From Escherichia phage ph0021, in the sequence record OP557970.1: a stretch of 64,000 nucleotides of DNA. One strand, given 5' to 3'. Within the stretch, counting starts at the first letter, position 1. Every line of letters starts with the position of its first letter. The notes under the pieces are model-generated. The model was not told where the DNA came from, made no database searches, and saw only the letters and a list, made by a program, of their open reading frames with translations. The translations under genes and the position numbers were made by a program. Positions 3,001-14,953 of this stretch are shown piece by piece.

Positions 3001-3948
3001 TTTAGTGGGGAATCAGACACAACACGTTCTACCGTATTTGAAGTTAGTGATGAAACGTCTAGTCATTTTTATTCTCAGCGCAATAAAGCTGGAAATATAA
3101 CATTTAATATCAACGGTACAGTAACACCGATAAATGTTAATGCTTCAGGAACATTGAATGCAAATGGTGTAGCAACATTTGGTAATTCAGTCACTGCAAC
3201 TGGTGAAATTATTTCTCGAAGCGCAAATGCTTTCCGTGCTATTAACGGAAATTATGGTTTCATTGTTCGCAATGATGGGTCAGTAACGAATTTTATGCTT
3301 ACTGCATCGGGTGATCAGACTGGTGGATTTAATGGATTACGTCCTTTAGCTATTAATAATGCATCTGGTCAAGTAACGATTGGTGAAAGCTTAATCATTT
3401 CCAAAGGTGCTACTATAAGTTCAGGTGGTTTAACTGTTAACTCGAGAATTCGTTCTCAGGGTACTAAAACCTCTGATTTATATACCCGTGCGCCAACATC
3501 TGATACAGTAGGATTCTGGTCAATCGATATTAATGATTCAGCCACTTATAACCAGTTTCCGGGTTATTTTAAAATGGTTGAAAAAACTAATGAAGTTACT
3601 GGACTTCCATACTTAGAACGTGGTGAAGAAGTTAAATCTCCTGGTACATTGACTCAGTTTGGTAACACACTTGATTCACTTTACCAAGATTGGATTACTT
3701 ATCCAACGACTCCAGAAGCACGTACCACTCGCTGGACACGTACATGGCAGAAAACCAAAAACTCTTGGTCAAGTTTTGTTCAGGTATTTGACGGAGGTAA
3801 CCCTCCTCAACCTTCAGATATAGGAGCGATCCCATCTGATAACGGAATAATAGGTAATCTTACTATTCGCGATTTCTTGCGAATTGGTAATGTTCGCATT
3901 ATTCCTGACCCAGTGAATAAAACTGTTAAATTTGAGTGGATTGAATAA
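79..3948 (+). CDS. 34: long tail fiber proximal subunit gp34
   Basis: 1289-aa ORF; N-terminus MAEIKRKFRAEDGLDAGGDKIINVALADR and length match T-even gp34; internal RTATETRRG...ITPKKL repeats. Confidence 0.93.
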   Translation: MAEIKRKFRAEDGLDAGGDKIINVALADRTVGTDGVNVDYLIQENTVQQYDPTRGYLKDFVIIYNNRFWAATDNIPKPAGNFNRIRWKALRTDAVYTTVSSGPYQLKSGEAISVDTSVGNDIEFTLPPSPLDGETVIIQDIGGKPGINQVKINSSNQSIVNFRGEQVRSVLMTHPKSQMIFIFNNRLWQMYVADYSREAAIVTPSTAYQAQSNDFIVRRFTSAAPINVKLPRFANHGDIINFVDLDKLNPLYHTIVTTYDETTSVQEVGTHSIEGRASIDGFLMFDDNEKLWRLFDGDSKARLRIITTNSNIRPNEEVMVFGANNGTAQTIELQLPTDISIGDTVKISMNYMRKGQTVKIKAAGEDKIASSVQLLQFPKRSEYPPEAEWVTVQELVFNGETNYVPVLQLAYIEDSDGKYWVVQQNVPTVERVDSLNNSTRARLGVIALATQAQANADLENSPQKELAITPETLANRTATETRRGIARIATTAQVNQNTTFSFADDLIITPKKLNERTATETRRGVAEIATQQETNTGTDDTTIITPKKLQARQGSESLSGIVTFVSTAGATPASSRELNGTNVYNKNTNNLVVSPKALDQYKATPTQQGAVILAVESEVIAGQSQEGWANAVVTPETLHKKTSTDGRIGLIEIATQSEVNTGTDYTRAVTPKTLNDRRATESLSGIAEIATQVEFDAGVDDTRISTPLKIKTRFNSTDRTSVVALSGLVESGTLWDHYTLNILEANETQRGTLRVATQVEAAAGTLDNVLITPKKLLGTKSTEAQEGVIKVATRSETVAGTSANTAVSPKNLKWIVQSEPTWAATTAIRGFVKTSSGSITFVGNDTAGSTQPLESYEKNGYAVSPYELNRVLANYLPLKAKAVDSNLLDGLDSLQFIRRDIAQTVNGSLTLTQQTNLSAPLVSSSTATFGGSVSANSTLTISNTGTATRLIFEKGPQTGTNPAQTMTVRVWGNQFSGESDTTRSTVFEVSDETSSHFYSQRNKAGNITFNINGTVTPINVNASGTLNANGVATFGNSVTATGEIISRSANAFRAINGNYGFIVRNDGSVTNFMLTASGDQTGGFNGLRPLAINNASGQVTIGESLIISKGATISSGGLTVNSRIRSQGTKTSDLYTRAPTSDTVGFWSIDINDSATYNQFPGYFKMVEKTNEVTGLPYLERGEEVKSPGTLTQFGNTLDSLYQDWITYPTTPEARTTRWTRTWQKTKNSWSSFVQVFDGGNPPQPSDIGAIPSDNGIIGNLTIRDFLRIGNVRIIPDPVNKTVKFEWIE

Positions 3949-8794: not shown

Positions 8795-9595
8795 ATGGCA
8801 GTAGTTGGTGTTCCTGGTTGGATTGGTAGTTCATCCGTAAATGAAACAGGACAACGATGGATGAGTCAAGCGGCTGGTCAATTAAGATTGGGTGTTCCTT
8901 GCTGGATGAGTCAATTTGCAGGTCGCTCACGAGAAATTATTCATACACTTGGAGCAGACCATAACTTCAATGGTCAATGGTTCCGAGATAGATGTTTTGA
9001 GGCCGGTAGTGCACCTATAGTGTTTAATATTACAGGTGATTTAGTATCATATTCTAAAGATGTTCCTTTATTCTTCATGTACGGGGATACGCCTAATGAA
9101 TATGTTGTTCTTAATATTCATGGTGGTGTTCATATGTGGGGTCGTGGTGGTAATGGTGGATACACTCACTCAGGAGGCGACGGTAACGGTACACAAGGCG
9201 GTCATGTTATTCAAAATGATATCGGCGGACGGCTTCGTATTTGGAACTACGGTGTTATAGCTGCTGGCGGTGGCGGTGGCGGTGGTATTGCATATCGTCC
9301 ACACTCAGGGGCAAACTGGCAAGATATCGGTGGCGGTGGTGGTCGACCTTTCGGTGGCGCTGGCGGTGGCGGTTATTCCGGTGGTGCTGCTTCGTATGAA
9401 GGTCCGGGTGGTGGTTATGACTATGGTAACGCACACTCCGGCGCTGGTGGTAATGCTGGTGCTGCTGGTCAGAATGCATGGTCTGACGGCGGTAAAGTTC
9501 TTAAAGTTGGTGTTGGTGGTGCGTCTGGTCATGCAGTGTTTGGATCTTCTCCAACTTGGGGTGTTGTTGGAACAATTTACGGACCAAGAGTATAA
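8795..9595 (+). CDS. 38: tail fiber tip adhesin gp38 (T2-type, glycine-rich motifs separating variable segments)
   Basis: 266 aa; several GGGGGG/GxGGG islands; T4 gp38 is 183 aa whereas T2-type adhesins are about 260 aa. Confidence 0.88.
9256..9375 (+). repeat. imperfect (GGY)n codon repeats encoding the gp38 glycine-rich motifs
   Basis: Runs of ggcggtggcggtggcggtggt and ggtggcggtggtggt inside gene 38. Confidence 0.6.
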
Positions 9596-9625: not shown

Positions 9626-10282
9626 ATGGCAGCACCTAGAATATCATTTTCGCCCTCTGATATTCTATTTGGTGTTCTAGATCGCTTGTTCAAAGATAAT
9701 GCTACCGGGAAAGTTCTTGCTTCCCGGGTAGCTGTCGTAATTCTTTTGTTTATAATGGCGATTGTATGGTATAGGGGAGATAGTTTCTTTGAGTACTATA
9801 AGCAATCAAAGTATGAAACATACAGTGAAATTATTGAAAAGGAAAGAAATGCACGCTTTGAATCTGTCGCCCTGGAACAACTCCAGATAGTTCATATATC
9901 ATCTGAGGCAGACTTTAGTGCGGTGTATTCTTTCCGCCCTAAAAACTTAAACTATTTTGTTGATATTATAGCATATGAAGGAAGATTACCTTCAACAATA
10001 ACTGAAAAATCACTTGGAGGATATCCTGTTGATAAAACTATGGATGAATATACAGTTCATTTAAATGGACGTCATTATTATTCCAACTCAAAATTTGCTT
10101 TTTTACCAACTAAAAAGCCTACTCCCGAAATAAACTACATGTACAGTTGTCCATATTTTAATTTGGATAATATCTATGCTGGAACGATAACCATGTACTG
10201 GTATAGAAATGATCATATAAGTAATGACCGCCTTGAATCAATATGTGCTCAGGCGGCCAGAATATTAGGAAGGGCTAAATAA
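9626..10282 (+). CDS. t: holin T
   Basis: 218 aa, same length as T4 holin; N-terminal cytoplasmic region, single TM segment (VAVVILLFIMAIVWY), large C-terminal domain. Confidence 0.93.
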   Translation: MAAPRISFSPSDILFGVLDRLFKDNATGKVLASRVAVVILLFIMAIVWYRGDSFFEYYKQSKYETYSEIIEKERNARFESVALEQLQIVHISSEADFSAVYSFRPKNLNYFVDIIAYEGRLPSTITEKSLGGYPVDKTMDEYTVHLNGRHYYSNSKFAFLPTKKPTPEINYMYSCPYFNLDNIYAGTITMYWYRNDHISNDRLESICAQAARILGRAK

Positions 10283-10555
10283 TTATTTGTTCGTATACAT
10301 CTCTAGATATCGATATACACCCTCAAAACCCTCGTTGAATTCGTCGATGAGGGTTTTCTTATCTTCTTGAGTTAATTCAGAAACAATTTTACGGAATGAA
10401 TTCTGATTTAACTTTCTACCTTCATGCGTTACTCCAATCTCATTCAGAAATGCAATAAAATTAGCACGATTCTCAACAATATCTTCTCTGGAAAATTTAA
10501 TCAAAATAGACGCAACAGTAATAATTTCACGAACTGTATCAATATTTTTATTCAT
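10283..10555 (-). CDS. asiA: anti-sigma-70 factor AsiA
   Basis: 90 aa; MNKNIDTVREIITVASILIKFSREDIVENRANFIAFLNEIGVTHEGRKL matches T4 AsiA. Confidence 0.95.
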   Translation of the reverse strand: MNKNIDTVREIITVASILIKFSREDIVENRANFIAFLNEIGVTHEGRKLNQNSFRKIVSELTQEDKKTLIDEFNEGFEGVYRYLEMYTNK

Positions 10556-10567
10556 TAACTATACCAC

Positions 10568-10720
10568 TCAATTAGTTGACTTTGTTATAATATCATCAGA
10601 CGTTTGTTTTGTAAACTGGTCTGTGTTATTTTCTTCAAAAATTTTTTCTACGAATTCCTTGAACGACTCACGTTCCTGAGCTACATTATGCTCGATTACC
10701 ATTTCAAGATTATGACTCAT
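10568..10720 (-). CDS. small hypothetical protein (50 aa) between asiA and arn
   Basis: ATG overlaps the arn stop (ATGA); acidic 50-aa ORF; below the ORF-track size cutoff. Confidence 0.4.
   Translation of the reverse strand: MSHNLEMVIEHNVAQERESFKEFVEKIFEENNTDQFTKQTSDDIITKSTN
10587..10616 (-). promoter_or_regulatory. T4-type early promoter upstream of asiA
   Basis: Minus-strand GTTTAC, 18 bp spacer, TATTAT. Confidence 0.5.
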
Positions 10721-10995
10721 TCGAAATAATCTTCAATTTCGTAATCATGGACGTAAATCATTATAGTTTTTAATACATCATCAATACTTTTTCCTGGAGC
10801 TGGAATTACGTAAAAATATCCTGCTTTTGAGAGGTCTTTATAAGTTCCAACCAAGAAATCATTATTCTCGAGATGTAATTCTTCAACTAATTCATTAACA
10901 ATTGAATGGTATAAATTTGGTAGAAACTTATATAGCTTTTCTAGAATATCAATTTTGATTGTATATTGAACCACAGATTGAGAATCAATAATCAT
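10717..10995 (-). CDS. arn: anti-restriction nuclease Arn (McrBC inhibitor)
   Basis: 92 aa; MIIDSQSVVQYTIKIDILEKLYKF...; size and position match T4 Arn. Confidence 0.88.
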   Translation of the reverse strand: MIIDSQSVVQYTIKIDILEKLYKFLPNLYHSIVNELVEELHLENNDFLVGTYKDLSKAGYFYVIPAPGKSIDDVLKTIMIYVHDYEIEDYFE

Positions 10996-11078
10996 AGACC
11001 TTCCCCTTATGTTTCTGTTTGCGATTAGATTCTTTAAACGCTTTCTTCTTATCCTTATGAACAGAAGCTTTATTAAAA

Positions 11079-11297
11079 TTATGTTTTGCGACTAAATTGT
11101 TCATAGTGCTGAATTACCTCTCTCAAACATTTGCATGTGAATGAAAACTTTTTAGCTACACCACATTCAAATATGTGTTCTCTTAAATCACGTGTATCAG
11201 TATATCCCATCTCAACAATAAAATGCCGTATTAGATTTTTATCTTTATCATTGAGAGAATTAAAATAATCGGATTTTGAATTAATTTCCCTGGCCAA
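11079..11297 (-). CDS. hypothetical protein (arn.1 position)
   Basis: 72-aa ORF in the early-gene orientation; Cys cluster ECG...FTCKC. Confidence 0.5.
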   Translation of the reverse strand: MAREINSKSDYFNSLNDKDKNLIRHFIVEMGYTDTRDLREHIFECGVAKKFSFTCKCLREVIQHYEQFSRKT

Positions 11298-11577
11298 ATT
11301 GAATCACCTTCAGTTGACGTTTTAATTCTTTTATCATCTCTTCGTTCATCGCAATATAAAGATCGCGTAAAGCAGGTTTTAACATTCCATTTACTGGAGA
11401 ACTAAATGGACATACATAATCTTTTCCTACGAGCTTTTTGGTGAATTCCATATCACAGAACTGAAATGCCGGTTCATTGGCATAAATTCCCCAATTAGTT
11501 GACATCATTTTATTGGCATATTCCAACGCCTGGATTTGATTCTTAATTCCATCAATTTGAAACTTTTTAATATTCAT
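11281..11577 (-). CDS. hypothetical protein (arn.2 position)
   Basis: 98-aa ORF, tightly packed with neighbours. Confidence 0.5.
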   Translation of the reverse strand: MNIKKFQIDGIKNQIQALEYANKMMSTNWGIYANEPAFQFCDMEFTKKLVGKDYVCPFSSPVNGMLKPALRDLYIAMNEEMIKELKRQLKVIQFGQGN

Positions 11578-12038
11578 TAGTAAAGGTCCTCAGAGTAAAG
11601 TTCTTTTTCACTACCACCGTGTTCAATACGTACTTGTCCGGCGTAAGTTGCAATAATCATTGCTTCTTCACGTGTCCAGTAATTGCTATACTGATCAATA
11701 AACCCTTGGTCATCATCACAAACTTGCTGAGTAACTAATTGGGGTTTAACTACATCTAAAACTTCTGCCATATCTTTAGAATAATGACGAGCACCTGGAA
11801 TAACAAGAGTTCGTCCATCTTTTAATTTAAAACGGTTGGCGGCACAAACAATTCGTCGTTGATACTTTTGGTTTTCATCCCAGTATGCGGTCTGCCAACA
11901 GATTTCAGGAACTTCTTTCAGAATATCTTCTTCTGTGCATTTATAACCATGTGCTTTAAATTTTTCAACAAGACTTTCTGGAGTTTCACGAGATAAAGGA
12001 ACATTCAGCATTTTTAAACGATTAATAAATGGGTTCAT
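11577..12038 (-). CDS. hypothetical protein (arn.3 position)
   Basis: 153-aa ORF; ATGA-type overlap with the downstream gene. Confidence 0.55.
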
Positions 12039-12364
12039 TTAAACCATCCTTTAATACGCTGCCACAGAGTTTTCTGTTGAGCTTTGTTAACACCAATTGA
12101 GCGAATAACTGGTTGAGATTCCTGGAATTCTTTATAATCAGCAAGGTAAATTTCGTAAGCCGATTGAACAAAGGTACTAATCGCTGCCATGAAGTTCTTG
12201 CGAATTCCCATAGAGGCTTCAGAACCACCACGGATGATTAAATATTTACCAGTCTTAATCTTTACGATAGTTCCAAGATAAGCTCCATGGTACCAGATGT
12301 CCCACCCCTCTTGAGTGGGTTCTGCACAACGACGAAGTTCATTAACAATTTCTAACTTGTTCAT
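12035..12364 (-). CDS. hypothetical protein (arn.4 position)
   Basis: 109-aa ORF upstream of motA in T4 map order. Confidence 0.55.
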
Positions 12365-12374
12365 TATTTATTCC

Positions 12375-13010
12375 TCACAGTTCAGATGCTACGGTGATTA
12401 CCGCTTCAATGTTTTCTGCCGAGCGTTTAATGTCAAGATACACATTACCGTTTTTAGCGATTTTACATGACATTCCGATATCAATAAATTTCTGAATATG
12501 ATGTTCCATCATTTTGTATCCAAAAATTCGCATATTTCCATTATTGTTAATTTCAAAATTACGAATTCCGTGAGTGCGTTTTTCTAAAATAGCGAGATAG
12601 TTACTACGATAAGTTTCAACCTTTTTAAGAACAAATCCATTTTCATCTAAAAGTTTTAGCATAAGGTCTTTATCTTCTTCCATATCGGAAGTAATCTCAC
12701 GAGCTTTACGAGTTGCTCGTTTTTTCAGTAGTTCAGGAGCATTTTCCTGTGCATATAAAGTTGCTGCATTTGAAATAATATCCTGAGCTTCTCCTGTAAT
12801 GATTAATCCATCACCAGATTTCTCTACCAGACCTTTTTTAATCAATACCCCAATATTACTATTAACTACTGCATTACCTAAATCTGGATGCACCTCACGA
12901 ACTTCTGCGGCTGTAATGAAATCTTTCTTAGCAATGGTAATTAAAATCGCAGCAGTTTTTTCATTCAGAACATCGTTAGAAGCTTTGATGATGTAAGTTA
13001 CTTTAGACAT
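12375..13010 (-). CDS. motA: middle-transcription activator MotA
   Basis: 211 aa; MSKVTYIIKASNDVLNEKTAAILITIAKKDFITAAEVREVHPDLGNAV matches T4 MotA. Confidence 0.95.
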   Translation of the reverse strand: MSKVTYIIKASNDVLNEKTAAILITIAKKDFITAAEVREVHPDLGNAVVNSNIGVLIKKGLVEKSGDGLIITGEAQDIISNAATLYAQENAPELLKKRATRKAREITSDMEEDKDLMLKLLDENGFVLKKVETYRSNYLAILEKRTHGIRNFEINNNGNMRIFGYKMMEHHIQKFIDIGMSCKIAKNGNVYLDIKRSAENIEAVITVASEL

Positions 13011-13046
13011 TTTAATCTCCGTTTCAGTTCATTTATTTGATAGGTC

Positions 13047-13076
13047 TATAGTATCATGTTTAAAGCAGAAGTAAAC
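13047..13076 (-). promoter_or_regulatory. T4-type early promoter upstream of motA
   Basis: Minus-strand GTTTAC, 17 bp spacer, TACTAT. Confidence 0.5.
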
Positions 13077-13115
13077 ACTTTTTTGCACTCTTTTTCAAGA
13101 GCTCTAATAAAGTAC

Positions 13116-13343
13116 TTACTTAATGTTCAGATTACGAACTTCGATTTCGTCTTCATGGGCAAAATCAAACTGTTTGAATTCTGTGTCACCTTTAAATTTA
13201 AAAATCATTGTGAAGAAAGTCAGAACACCAGGTTTTTCTTCACGAACTCCACAGATATCATATTCAATACCATCTACAACCAGTTTGTTAGCAGTCAGAG
13301 CATTTTTAGCTTTAACGATTTCGTTTTCGATTTTAAATTTCAT
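13116..13343 (-). CDS. hypothetical protein
   Basis: 75-aa ORF preceded by an early promoter. Confidence 0.5.
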   Translation of the reverse strand: MKFKIENEIVKAKNALTANKLVVDGIEYDICGVREEKPGVLTFFTMIFKFKGDTEFKQFDFAHEDEIEVRNLNIK

Positions 13344-13393
13344 TTTTTGTATCTCCGGGTTGTTTGTTTCAGTTCATTTATTTGATAGTTGTA

Positions 13394-13422
13394 TAGTACC
13401 ACAGTATGCTTTGGTTGTAAAC
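13394..13422 (-). promoter_or_regulatory. T4-type early promoter
   Basis: Minus-strand GTTTAC, 18 bp spacer, TGG-TACTAT plus the conserved leader ACAACTATCAA. Confidence 0.5.
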
Positions 13423-13444
13423 CGTTTTGTGAAAAAATTTTTGA

Positions 13445-13473
13445 AATAAAAAAGGGAGAGCCTCGGCTCTCCC
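13445..13473 (-). terminator. rho-independent terminator
   Basis: GGGAGAGCC/GGCTCTCCC stem followed by TTTTTTATT on the minus strand. Confidence 0.7.
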
Positions 13474-13478
13474 TAAAA

Positions 13479-13628
13479 TTACTGCATGACTGTGATAACT
13501 GTCATGATAACACGTTGAATTCCGAACGCAAGAAGACCTCCTGCTACGGCAGGAACAACACCTAAACCCGCCAGTAAAATGCCACCAGATACTAATGCAG
13601 CGCTTGTAATACCTATGAATGGACTCAT
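13479..13628 (-). CDS. small membrane protein (49 aa) translationally coupled to gene 52
   Basis: ATG overlaps the gene 52 stop (ATGA); Gly/Ala-rich hydrophobic peptide MSPFIGITSAALVSGGILLAGLGVVPAVAGG. Confidence 0.45.
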   Translation of the reverse strand: MSPFIGITSAALVSGGILLAGLGVVPAVAGGLLAFGIQRVIMTVITVMQ

Positions 13629-14953
13629 TTGATTTCCTCTAAATCTTTGGTGTATTCTGTAACTACATCAGTAGTTTTCCAATATTCGTTTTCTTCTTTT
13701 TTAGCTTTAGCTTCTTCAGCAAGTTTCTTTGCTTCGTCGGAAGTCATATGAAAAATATTCATTCCGACTAGTTTATCAACATAAGAAGAATACATCTCAA
13801 TTTTAGAAAGTTCTTCAGTCAGTTCTTTGCGAGTTTTACCCTGTACAACGATTTCACCTGAAATTACTTTCTTAATGAAATGTGCCTTGGCAAAAGCTAA
13901 ACGAAAAGCTGACTCAGTTTCTTTAATTTTATTATCAATTCGTTTTTGGACATAAGTTTTACGAACTTCAACGAAGTCTTTGATTAAATCAACTACGTTA
14001 TCGTAAACTTGTAGTTTTCCTTTCTCATTAATAACCGTAATATTCTGAGAACGACGCTCAATCAACCCGAAGTCTTTCATAATTTTTGCATGGCGTTCTT
14101 CTTCATTATCGCTCAAAGAGTATTCTTTTCGGAATTTAACTTTGAATCCAAAACCATGCTCACCACAAGCATCATCCCATGTAATGAAGCCTTTATCTTC
14201 AAGTGGGTCTAAGATTTTACTCACATAAATTTCACGATCATACTTATACGGAATCTCAGTGATATGCATTTGAGTTCGTGAAGTAAACTTATATGTTCCA
14301 CGAATTTCATATTGCCCATCAATTTCAACGACTTCACCACGAAATTCTGGGAATTCTACCTTCGGTTTAGTTACTTTCTTTCCTTGAAGAGCTTGTAATA
14401 CAGCTTTCTTGACAGAAGAAACACTATGAGGAAGAATGTAAGTTGCATAACCAGTTGCAATACCGGAAACGCCATTAAGAAGAACAGTAGGAATAATAGG
14501 CAAATAGAAAGCAGGCGGAATGTGTTCTTTATCTTGATGTACCGGAGCATATTCAGTATCTTTATATACGTTATAGAAATTTTTACTTACACGAGCAAAA
14601 ATATAACGACTTGCTGCTGCCTTTTGGACAGTACGAGAACCAAAGTTTCCTTGACCGTCTAACAGAGGAAAGTTATTATTCCAAGTGTTAGCCATCAAAG
14701 CACCTGCGTCTTGCGCAGAGTTTTCACCATGATGATATCCAAGGTCCGCTACACCGCCTGCGATAGAAGCGAGTTTGTGAAACTTATCTTTATTTCCTCG
14801 TGCCAAATCAAGAGCTCGAGCAATAACAAATCGTTGAACTGGCTTAAATCCGTCAATCATATTTGGAATGGCACGATTTTCAACCGTGTACATAGCATAA
14901 GCCAATGCTTCATTATCAATGATACTTTTTAAATCGCGATTATTCAGTTGCAT
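13625..14953 (-). CDS. 52: DNA topoisomerase II medium subunit gp52
   Basis: 442 aa, same length as T4 gp52; GyrA-like breakage-reunion region. Confidence 0.95.
   Translation of the reverse strand: MQLNNRDLKSIIDNEALAYAMYTVENRAIPNMIDGFKPVQRFVIARALDLARGNKDKFHKLASIAGGVADLGYHHGENSAQDAGALMANTWNNNFPLLDGQGNFGSRTVQKAAASRYIFARVSKNFYNVYKDTEYAPVHQDKEHIPPAFYLPIIPTVLLNGVSGIATGYATYILPHSVSSVKKAVLQALQGKKVTKPKVEFPEFRGEVVEIDGQYEIRGTYKFTSRTQMHITEIPYKYDREIYVSKILDPLEDKGFITWDDACGEHGFGFKVKFRKEYSLSDNEEERHAKIMKDFGLIERRSQNITVINEKGKLQVYDNVVDLIKDFVEVRKTYVQKRIDNKIKETESAFRLAFAKAHFIKKVISGEIVVQGKTRKELTEELSKIEMYSSYVDKLVGMNIFHMTSDEAKKLAEEAKAKKEENEYWKTTDVVTEYTKDLEEIK

Follow-up and report, generated by a model that had tools for sequence, protein, structure and literature searches.

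What do the small genes packed around arn in a T4-like phage do, and are they, like arn, directed against host defences? The question arises from a 64,000-nucleotide (nt) stretch of the genome of Escherichia phage ph0021 (OP557970.1; hereafter the window), in which a run of short genes occupies the minus strand between motA (12375-13010) and asiA (10283-10555). Arn is a DNA-mimic inhibitor of McrBC and is the only characterised member of the run. A first-pass annotation of the window had listed, besides Arn, five open reading frames (ORFs) of 50-153 amino acids (aa) between asiA and motA, a count that the ORF list bears out, and had put them forward as candidate inhibitors of host defence. On balance, the analysis presented here favors the view that the interval corresponds to the 'arn operon' known from T-even phages, with seven small overlapping genes rather than six, which encode mixed, non-essential host-interaction factors. 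Whether the five ORFs inhibit host defence cannot be told at present; it is a reasonable conjecture that the evidence neither supports nor excludes.

The window can be assigned by its sequence to a Tequatrovirus, a phage of the T4 type. Over bases 10200-13100 it matches GenBank OR584013 ('Pseudomonas phage PsgM02F') at 100% identity and many T4-like (Tequatrovirus) phages of Escherichia, Shigella and Yersinia at ~97%. In total 832 phage records match this stretch, 477 of them over at least 80% of its length. Gene order and orientation between motA and asiA are identical in T4, OR584013 and this phage. By sequence comparison the five ORFs are orthologues of T4 asiA.1, arn.1, arn.2, arn.3 and arn.4: their products share 82-98% protein identity with those of T4p256 and T4p258-T4p261 in T4 NC_000866 (blastp), and they match PHROG families with E values from 1e-36 to 1e-73. 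The earlier description of the ORFs as unannotated was wrong, because all five are named in the T4 reference and are annotated as coding sequences in the identical OR584013.

In the direction of transcription, the motA stop codon is followed after 10 nt by arn.4 (12035-12364; 109 aa, pI 9.6), and then by arn.3 (11577-12038; 153 aa, pI 5.3), arn.2 (11281-11577; 98 aa, pI 8.9), arn.1 in its long form (11079-11297; 72 aa, TTG start, pI 8.5), a further ORF designated orf39 (10985-11104; 39 aa, pI 10.2), arn (10717-10995; 92 aa) and asiA.1 (10568-10720; 50 aa, acidic, pI 4.6), all on the minus strand, with asiA starting 12 nt past the asiA.1 stop codon. Between the two gaps of 10 and 12 nt, the successive junctions are overlaps of 4, 1, 17, 26, 11 and 4 nt, in agreement with the first-pass remark that the ORFs are tightly coupled translationally. 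An early-type promoter sequence upstream of motA (GTTTAC-N17-TACTAT; 13048-13076, minus strand), recognised as a consensus match only, is likely to be the entry of transcription for motA and the downstream run, and no terminator-like site was found on the minus strand between it and asiA. The run, placed downstream of motA, would end at the early-type promoter of asiA (GTTTACA-N17-TATTAT; 10587-10616, minus strand), which was located by consensus scans only and lies within asiA.1 at its 3' end, sharing its bases with the last ~17 codons of that gene (within 10568-10616). A TGCTTTA box within arn.2 was considered as part of a MotA-type middle promoter and is not claimed as one, its spacer being 9 nt instead of the canonical 11-13 nt. 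No Rfam family matches within 10000-13800.

Are such short frames genes at all? A set of 78 related IMG/VR loci was fetched with the Arn.3 profile, orthologues were assigned by blastp, and the ratio of nonsynonymous to synonymous substitution rates (dN/dS) was taken as the pairwise median over up to 74 orthologues. It is 0.035 for arn, 0.098 for orf39, 0.11 for asiA.1, 0.16 for arn.1, 0.20 for arn.3, 0.26 for arn.4 and 0.34 for arn.2, the fastest-evolving conserved gene of the run, and 0.21 and 0.26 for the flanking asiA and motA. These sequence comparisons show all seven genes to be under purifying selection, and the ORFs are not chance frames because their dN/dS values lie between 0.035 and 0.34. 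In T4, Arn.2, Arn.3 and Arn.4 are classed as 'early RNA / early protein', Arn.1 as 'early RNA / middle protein' and AsiA.1 as 'early RNA / late protein' (PMC9697503 supplement). With a protein class for each in that proteome and dN/dS of 0.11-0.34, all five are real, expressed genes. In T2 the RNA of arn.4 to arn is abundant (bioRxiv 10.64898/2026.06.19.733364).

It could still be argued that the shortest ORFs (asiA.1, arn.1 and orf39) are chance frames or decaying remnants. Points in favor are their small size, the likeness of AsiA.1 to the N-terminal helix of longer proteins (88-137 aa) that occupy its place in other genera, the double use of the asiA.1 3' end as the promoter of asiA, and the loss of the arn.4 ATG in the T4 reference. 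This explanation is barely credible in the face of the low dN/dS of exactly these three genes, the protein classes of AsiA.1 and Arn.1 in the T4 proteome (PMC9697503) and the retention of orf39 in 1,196 phage genomes, and between them conservation and proteomics have already gone most of the way to refuting it. The start codon of arn.4 is ATG in the window, giving 109 aa, but ATA in the T4 reference, where a 68-aa product is annotated because of this replacement; the 41 N-terminal codons remain intact in T4 NC_000866 (locus L003 ~3334-3460, compared with window 12241-12364), with synonymous changes only.

The genes are also dispensable in the laboratory. In HIDEN-SEQ transposon mapping of T4, arn, arn.1-4 and asiA.1 are classified as 'Non-essential', with 95-100% of TA sites hit, and asiA as 'Essential', while CRISPRi-ART in T4 scores arn, arn.1-4 and asiA.1 all as 'Not Fit'. 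The six genes annotated in T4 are thus shown to be individually dispensable on laboratory E. coli.

Where does arn.1 begin? T4 and OR584013 annotate a 43-aa product from the ATG at 11210. We infer that the protein really has 72 aa and starts at TTG 11297, where the ORF opens with the Shine-Dalgarno sequence AAGGTG 7 nt upstream; its first 17 nt are those shared with arn.2. Arn.1 homologues in other genera are 65-75 aa long and have ATG or GTG at exactly the homologous start codon; in one alignment, for example, ATG-AAG-ACT-CTT-AAT-TCA-AAA in other genera stands against TTG-GCC-AGG-GAA-ATT-AAT-TCA-AAA here. The long form would yield N-terminal peptides such as EINSKSDYFNSLNDK, encoded upstream of ATG 11210. 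The added N-terminal segment (YFNSLN...K..I..FI.E.GY) is the best-conserved part of the protein. The dN/dS of codons 7-29 is 0.11, against 0.21 in the annotated part, the phrog_4452 match spans residues 1-72, and RefSeq NC_054914 calls a 74-aa long form.

The position of this start bears on a regulatory site established by experiment in T2, where the host small RNA (sRNA) ArcZ pairs with arn.2 at +285..+294 and shields the transcript from RNase E at a GCAUU located at the end of a '70-nt intergenic region' (bioRxiv 10.64898/2026.06.19.733364, June 2026). The ArcZ position, the 70-nt spacing and the placement of GCATT are all the same in the window as in the T2 arn operon. The ArcZ pairing site, CCAGGGAAAT (11284-11293, minus strand), comprises the last 10 nt of arn.2 before the stop codon and simultaneously nt +5..+14 (codons 2-5) of long arn.1, while GCATT, the putative RNase E motif (11222-11226, minus strand), lies 11 nt upstream of ATG 11210 and inside the long arn.1 frame. 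Whereas the preprint counts five genes and takes the 70 nt as intergenic, the sequence of the window has an extra gene, orf39, between arn.1 and arn, and the 70 nt are read here as the conserved N-terminus of Arn.1. Given the long frame, therefore, the 70 nt would be coding sequence and RNase E would find its motif in RNA that is translated. In Tequatrovirus, the stretch paired by ArcZ would then coincide exactly with the beginning of the long arn.1 frame, and ArcZ would probably act on a translated region feeding the coupled arn.1, orf39 and arn, not on an intergenic spacer. The complement of the ArcZ seed is present, among the loci examined, only in those of Tequatrovirus type. The direction of any ArcZ effect on the translation of Arn.1 cannot be inferred from sequence.

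The seventh gene of the run, as the sequence identifies it, is orf39, which the first-pass count of ORFs had missed and which is annotated neither in T4 nor in OR584013. It is located between arn.1 and arn, overlapping them by 26 nt and 11 nt, and matches Pfam DUF7230 above the gathering threshold (E=1.2e-11; 44.9 bits, cut-off 27) as well as phrog_1359. Exactly one copy is present in each of 1,196 cultured phage records at 57-100% identity, including phages of Escherichia, Klebsiella, Enterobacter, Cronobacter, Serratia and even Aeromonas, and in essentially all T4-like loci examined the peptide is 64-100% identical. K and R make up 12 of its 39 residues. A likeness to ArfA or to T7 gp1.1 is not claimed for it. 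Because orf39 is missing from the T4 annotation, it appears in none of the gene tables examined from the genome-wide T4 screens.

Do the proteins themselves reveal what they do? The earlier statement that they have no recognisable domain stands in the sense that no function-bearing family was found, but the ORFs do belong to catalogued families of unknown function. To call them uncharacterised is right. The five ORFs gave nothing above threshold in local Pfam, NCBIfam and PADLOC, and fall into PHROGs 3762 (asiA.1), 4452 (arn.1), 1844 (arn.2, E=3e-51), 839 (arn.3) and 1594, all of unknown function; their homologues carry the precomputed Pfam entries PF26092, PF26821 and PF26819, the last on homologues of Arn.2. 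Against PDB sequences, neither single-sequence queries nor the profiles of Arn.3, Arn.4 and Arn.1 gave a match below E=0.26. No homology of the ORFs to characterised anti-defence proteins was detected in Pfam, NCBIfam, PHROG or PDB sequences or in the folds of Arn.3 and Arn.4, and neither was any confident homology to housekeeping functions, which the first-pass annotation had named as evidence that would count against its proposal. In a search with all seven ORFs, sub-threshold matches to Thr_dehydrat_C, Prok-E2_B, the Nif11 leader and PD-T4-9_B (E 0.003-0.2) were put down to chance. The same applies to a similarity of Arn.2 to gp47 (Mre11-like nuclease), which has E=2.7e-4 within the window but vanishes with the Arn.2 profile (E=0.046 when searched against gp47 alone). 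GenBank and UniRef often label homologues of Arn.1-Arn.4 as 'anti-restriction nuclease'; this label seems to derive from the arn.N naming of the genes and not from any evidence.

Arn.1 contains the Cys cluster (ECG...FTCKC) that had been pointed out in the first-pass annotation, although only part of it is conserved. An alignment of 12 diverse homologues shows H41, C45 and C57 to be invariant, with H64 close to it, but C55, the first Cys of FTCKC, varies. H41, C45, C57 and H64 might be ligands of a zinc site. The pattern L-x2-H-I-x-E-C-G-(V/I)-A-K-R-F appears to resemble a helix-turn-helix (HTH), and no HTH family of Pfam or NCBIfam matches. From the sequence, a small H/C metal site and an HTH-like fold are both possible; no match to a family or from the PDB profile search speaks for either.

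Arn.3 has a variable helical N-terminus followed by a conserved domain of ~95 aa (residues ~58-153). H85 and R123 are invariant in 147 diverse members, and R84, Q111-G-F-x-D115, Q135 and an L-x-S-E-x-L-Y at the extreme C-terminus are near-invariant. The window Arn.3, which matches phrog_839 with E=1e-73 and whose homologues carry the precomputed PF26092, has all the family motifs (R-H, Q-G-F-x-D, R, Q, SE-x-LY), the conservation being assessed over 43 + 147 members. The domain is found in 3,446 representatives (E<=1e-3) of 50%-identity clusters and in at least 1,591 cultured phage genomes, nearly all with one match per genome; the carriers include Tevenvirinae, Ackermannviridae, Phapecoctavirus, phiKZ-like phages and Acinetobacter T4-like phages. 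It occurs in only 2 loci among 185,579 bacterial and archaeal species genomes (pattern-based scan) and in one of 72,556 plasmids (tblastn). The Arn.3 domain is a large, virulent-phage-restricted family that has an enzyme-like signature and no detectable fold relative.

The predicted structure of Arn.3 is a confident model for which no fold relative was found, and in particular no nucleotidyl or phosphoryl transferase. Among viral models it matches only uncharacterised phage proteins and, weakly, three polyvalent proteins. The latter are 'large polyvalent protein associated domain' proteins in BFVD, and their Foldseek matches with the Arn.3 model have E values of 3e-3, 1.6e-2 and 0.12 and probabilities of 0.95-1.0, with low TM-scores (0.35-0.37, normalised to the query). 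Neither Arn.3 nor any of 146 relatives is matched by a local Pfam LPD model, and Arn.3, unlike the polyvalent proteins, is stand-alone. A Pfam scan of the 147 family members gave singleton noise only. The N-terminal fusion partners found in some Arn.3-domain proteins (225-434 aa) have no Pfam match, and their PHROG matches are all of unknown function. A separate observation concerns a ~60-aa module, Y-x-IPA-x-NE-x-(D/N)A-x-VRLGQI-x-GD, which in some T4-like phages is encoded by its own ORF between motA and arn.4 (L017 3481-3657, L020 3130-3309, L021 3124-3309). In protein P0041 this module forms the N-terminal part of an Arn.3-domain protein, and the fusion may reflect a functional link with Arn.3.

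The conserved polar residues and the genomic surroundings of its homologues raise the possibility that Arn.3 is a small enzyme of RNA-end or nucleotide repair or modification, working for instance with healing-and-sealing enzymes, and that the other ORFs are unrelated passengers. Such an activity would agree with the invariance of H85 and R123 and the near-invariance of R84, D115 and Q135 in the 147 members. In Phapecoctavirus-type phages (ESCO13 L092, IMG/VR L051 and L057) the Arn.3 gene is translationally coupled to a cassette of a metallophosphoesterase, an Rnl1-type RNA ligase and a P-loop kinase; in L092 (3432-5678) the metallophosphoesterase, the T4-Rnl1-type RNA ligase and the AAA_33 kinase come directly after the Arn.3-domain gene. 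In a phiKZ-like phage an HD_4 hydrolase gene lies directly downstream (L093 3345-4466), a phage of ~150 kb carries a NADAR gene ~1.3 kb downstream of its Arn.3-domain gene (L025 3881-6261), and in Det7 the Arn.3-domain gene is two genes after a gp52-like topoisomerase subunit. However, suggestive adjacency is confined to two lineages, and no neighbour family is common to several lineages among homologues outside T4-like phages. The pnk and rnl genes of T4 lie elsewhere, the domain has only ~95 aa, its N-terminal fusion partners have no recognisable domains and, as noted above, no fold relation to any nucleotidyl or phosphoryl transferase was found. A repair enzyme with passengers is therefore quite improbable. 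Arn.3 is read here as an enzyme-like or ligand-binding domain for an unspecified ligand, with a genomic context that hints weakly at nucleic-acid repair or conflict.

Is DNA mimicry, the mechanism of Arn, shared by its neighbours? The arn ORF matches DM_Arn (PF22134) with E=1e-53 as well as phrog_3151, and carries the name arn in T4. It is the only one to match the PF22134 profile, asiA.1 and arn.1-4 giving nothing at E<=1. AsiA.1, which is on the same transcript and has a pI of 4.6 compared with 4.55 for Arn, is the only acidic protein by the DNA-mimic criterion among the five ORFs and orf39. Arn.4, Arn.2, Arn.1 and the orf39 peptide are basic and therefore not DNA mimics like Arn. The N-terminus of AsiA.1, MSHNLE, recurs in longer proteins (50-137 aa) that take its place in other genera and that past this segment have unrelated longer C-terminal parts. 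The Arn.4 family is restricted to T-even-type phages and has a predicted alpha + beta-meander + alpha fold, for which no fold match was found.

Taken together, the run would not form one machine but a mixed collection of non-essential factors for interaction with the host, each of which probably works in stoichiometric amounts, binding some macromolecule of host or phage early in infection. Judging from composition and conservation, Arn.4 and Arn.2 would most likely be protein-binding adaptors, the DUF7230 peptide a polycationic nucleic-acid or ribosome binder, and Arn.1 a small nucleic-acid- or metal-binding protein. Arn.3 would be the exception among these binders, most likely binding or processing a phosphate-bearing ligand such as a nucleotide or nucleic-acid end.

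Several points weigh against this picture of the operon and of its ArcZ site. The mechanisms of the individual proteins are all inferred from composition and conservation; the Arn.1 and Arn.4 profiles found no significant match among PDB sequences, the single match of Arn.1 having E=6.4. No canonical MotA-type middle promoter was found at the locus. The TTG start of arn.1 rests on homology and a good Shine-Dalgarno sequence, not on ribosome profiling or peptides, and RNA structure around the ArcZ site is not significant (z=0.09 against shuffled sequences). The pairing of an sRNA within the first five codons usually represses translation. The effect of ArcZ on the transcript reported in the preprint is positive (bioRxiv 10.64898/2026.06.19.733364).

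How does the cluster evolve, and does its evolution speak for an arms race with the host? The order gp52, motA, arn.4, arn.3, arn.2, (arn.1), orf39, ..., asiA, t is kept in ~45 T4-like IMG/VR loci from several genera, and the slot between orf39 and asiA is hypervariable, with one to three small genes. By blastp alone arn and asiA.1 are found only in close T4 relatives, but iterative profiles reach 29-30 loci, with divergent Arn-like genes in 29 and AsiA.1-like genes in 30, and many of the small genes in the slot belong to these two groups. The divergent Arn-like proteins have ~90 aa and mostly end in (L/I/F)EDY(F/L/I). Because they are highly diverged across genera, Arn appears as a conserved, fast-evolving companion of the cluster, in contrast to the slow-evolving arn.3, arn.1 and orf39.

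The hypervariable slot and the fast-diverging Arn-like partner, present in 29 T4-like loci and in most T4-like genera, are circumstantial points in favor of the proposal of an anti-defence island, in which all or most of the five ORFs would encode, alongside arn, dedicated inhibitors of host systems against phages. In the same direction point the co-transcription with arn in T2 (bioRxiv 10.64898/2026.06.19.733364), the early expression in T4 (PMC9697503), the dispensability of all of them on K-12, the location of Arn.3 homologues beside an RNA-repair cassette or an HD_4 hydrolase gene or near a NADAR gene, and the Foldseek matches of Arn.3 to polyvalent-domain proteins (E=3e-3 to 0.1). Against it, the proteins have no similarity to known anti-defence proteins, solved structures or folds, and the neighbourhoods of Arn.3 homologues are inconsistent between lineages. 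The genes arn.3, arn.1 and orf39 are conserved across genera, and arn.3 even across phage families, with dN/dS of 0.10-0.20; given this slow evolution and breadth, a conserved target fits better than an arms race.

Genetic data bear on the same proposal. In two HIDEN-SEQ comparisons, a reference against a delta-rnlA library and K-12 against the clinical isolate CFE299, the genes show no depletion (log2 fold changes near 0, q=1). In the second comparison the log2 fold changes of the arn cluster are -0.08 to +0.33 (q=1), compared with -4.8 for nrdC.1. The main text of that study has no arn-cluster gene among its candidates for RexAB, RnlAB, DarTG1, CBASS, Mokosh or other clinical isolates. T4 nrdC.1, identified there as anti-Septu, is a comparable small T4 ORFan that has no domain or fold match and is dispensable on K-12, but it is conditionally essential on CFE299 and the arn-cluster genes are not. 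A dedicated anti-defence island is thus rather doubtful, while a counter-defence role for one or more of the genes is plausible, at somewhat less than even chances. The preprint on T2 likewise gives the functions as unknown and calls counter-defence roles 'conceivable' (bioRxiv 10.64898/2026.06.19.733364); the genes are already known, and the anti-defence conjecture is already in print.

The position of the run suggests another explanation, that the ORFs are auxiliary host-takeover factors of gene expression that act beside MotA and AsiA on RNA polymerase, DNA, mRNA or ribosomes. In all T4-like loci the genes are placed between, and co-expressed with, the middle-transcription factors motA and asiA; their early expression in T4 (PMC9697503), the apparent HTH-like pattern of Arn.1 and the K/R content of the DUF7230 peptide would suit such a role. 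However, no match to DNA-binding or RNA-polymerase-binding families or structures was found. The Arn.3 loci of Ackermannviridae, Phapecoctavirus and phiKZ-like phages have no MotA or AsiA nearby (by blastp and annotations, within the loci and not the whole genomes), and knock-down or disruption causes no growth defect, unlike disruption of asiA and motA. Takeover factors are accordingly an unlikely description of the set as a whole, and the mixed set of host-interaction factors is preferred. A more speculative combination, to which we give little credence, is that the Arn.3 core is a new-fold enzyme or ligand sponge with which large virulent Proteobacteria phages counter some widespread response of their hosts, and that, separately, in Tequatrovirus ArcZ gates the coupled arn.1-DUF7230-arn genes at the start of a mis-annotated 72-aa Arn.1.

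Three further observations concern the surroundings. The host of OR584013 is listed as Pseudomonas coronafaciens pv. garcae, which looks odd for a typical Tequatrovirus. The window, like several relatives and unlike T4, has a 75-aa ORF (13116-13343, minus strand) between motA and motA.1; ahead of it lie an early-type promoter and a strong terminator-like hairpin with a 9-bp GC-rich stem and a T-run (elements at 13393-13422 and 13448-13474). On the plus strand, a glycine-rich ORF of 266 aa (8795-9595) coincides with a local rise in GC content, up to 56% against ~33% nearby; OR584013 labels it 'tail fiber protein / host specificity'. T4 has gene 38, of unrelated length, at this position.

By itself, the finding of the small ORFs adds little, as it rediscovers named hypothetical genes of the best-studied phage. 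Three things are new: a re-annotation of arn.1 that matters for ArcZ, a conserved peptide of the DUF7230 family, and an Arn.3 domain with defined limits and membership. The re-annotation of arn.1 would change the reading of the ArcZ and RNase E result, since the sRNA would pair where translation starts and the RNase E motif would be part of a translated sequence. The DUF7230 peptide offers a concrete handle, being conserved in ~1,200 phage genomes yet outside the T4 reference annotation. The Arn.3 domain is among the larger phage-only families with a confident model and presents a well-defined structural and biochemical target.

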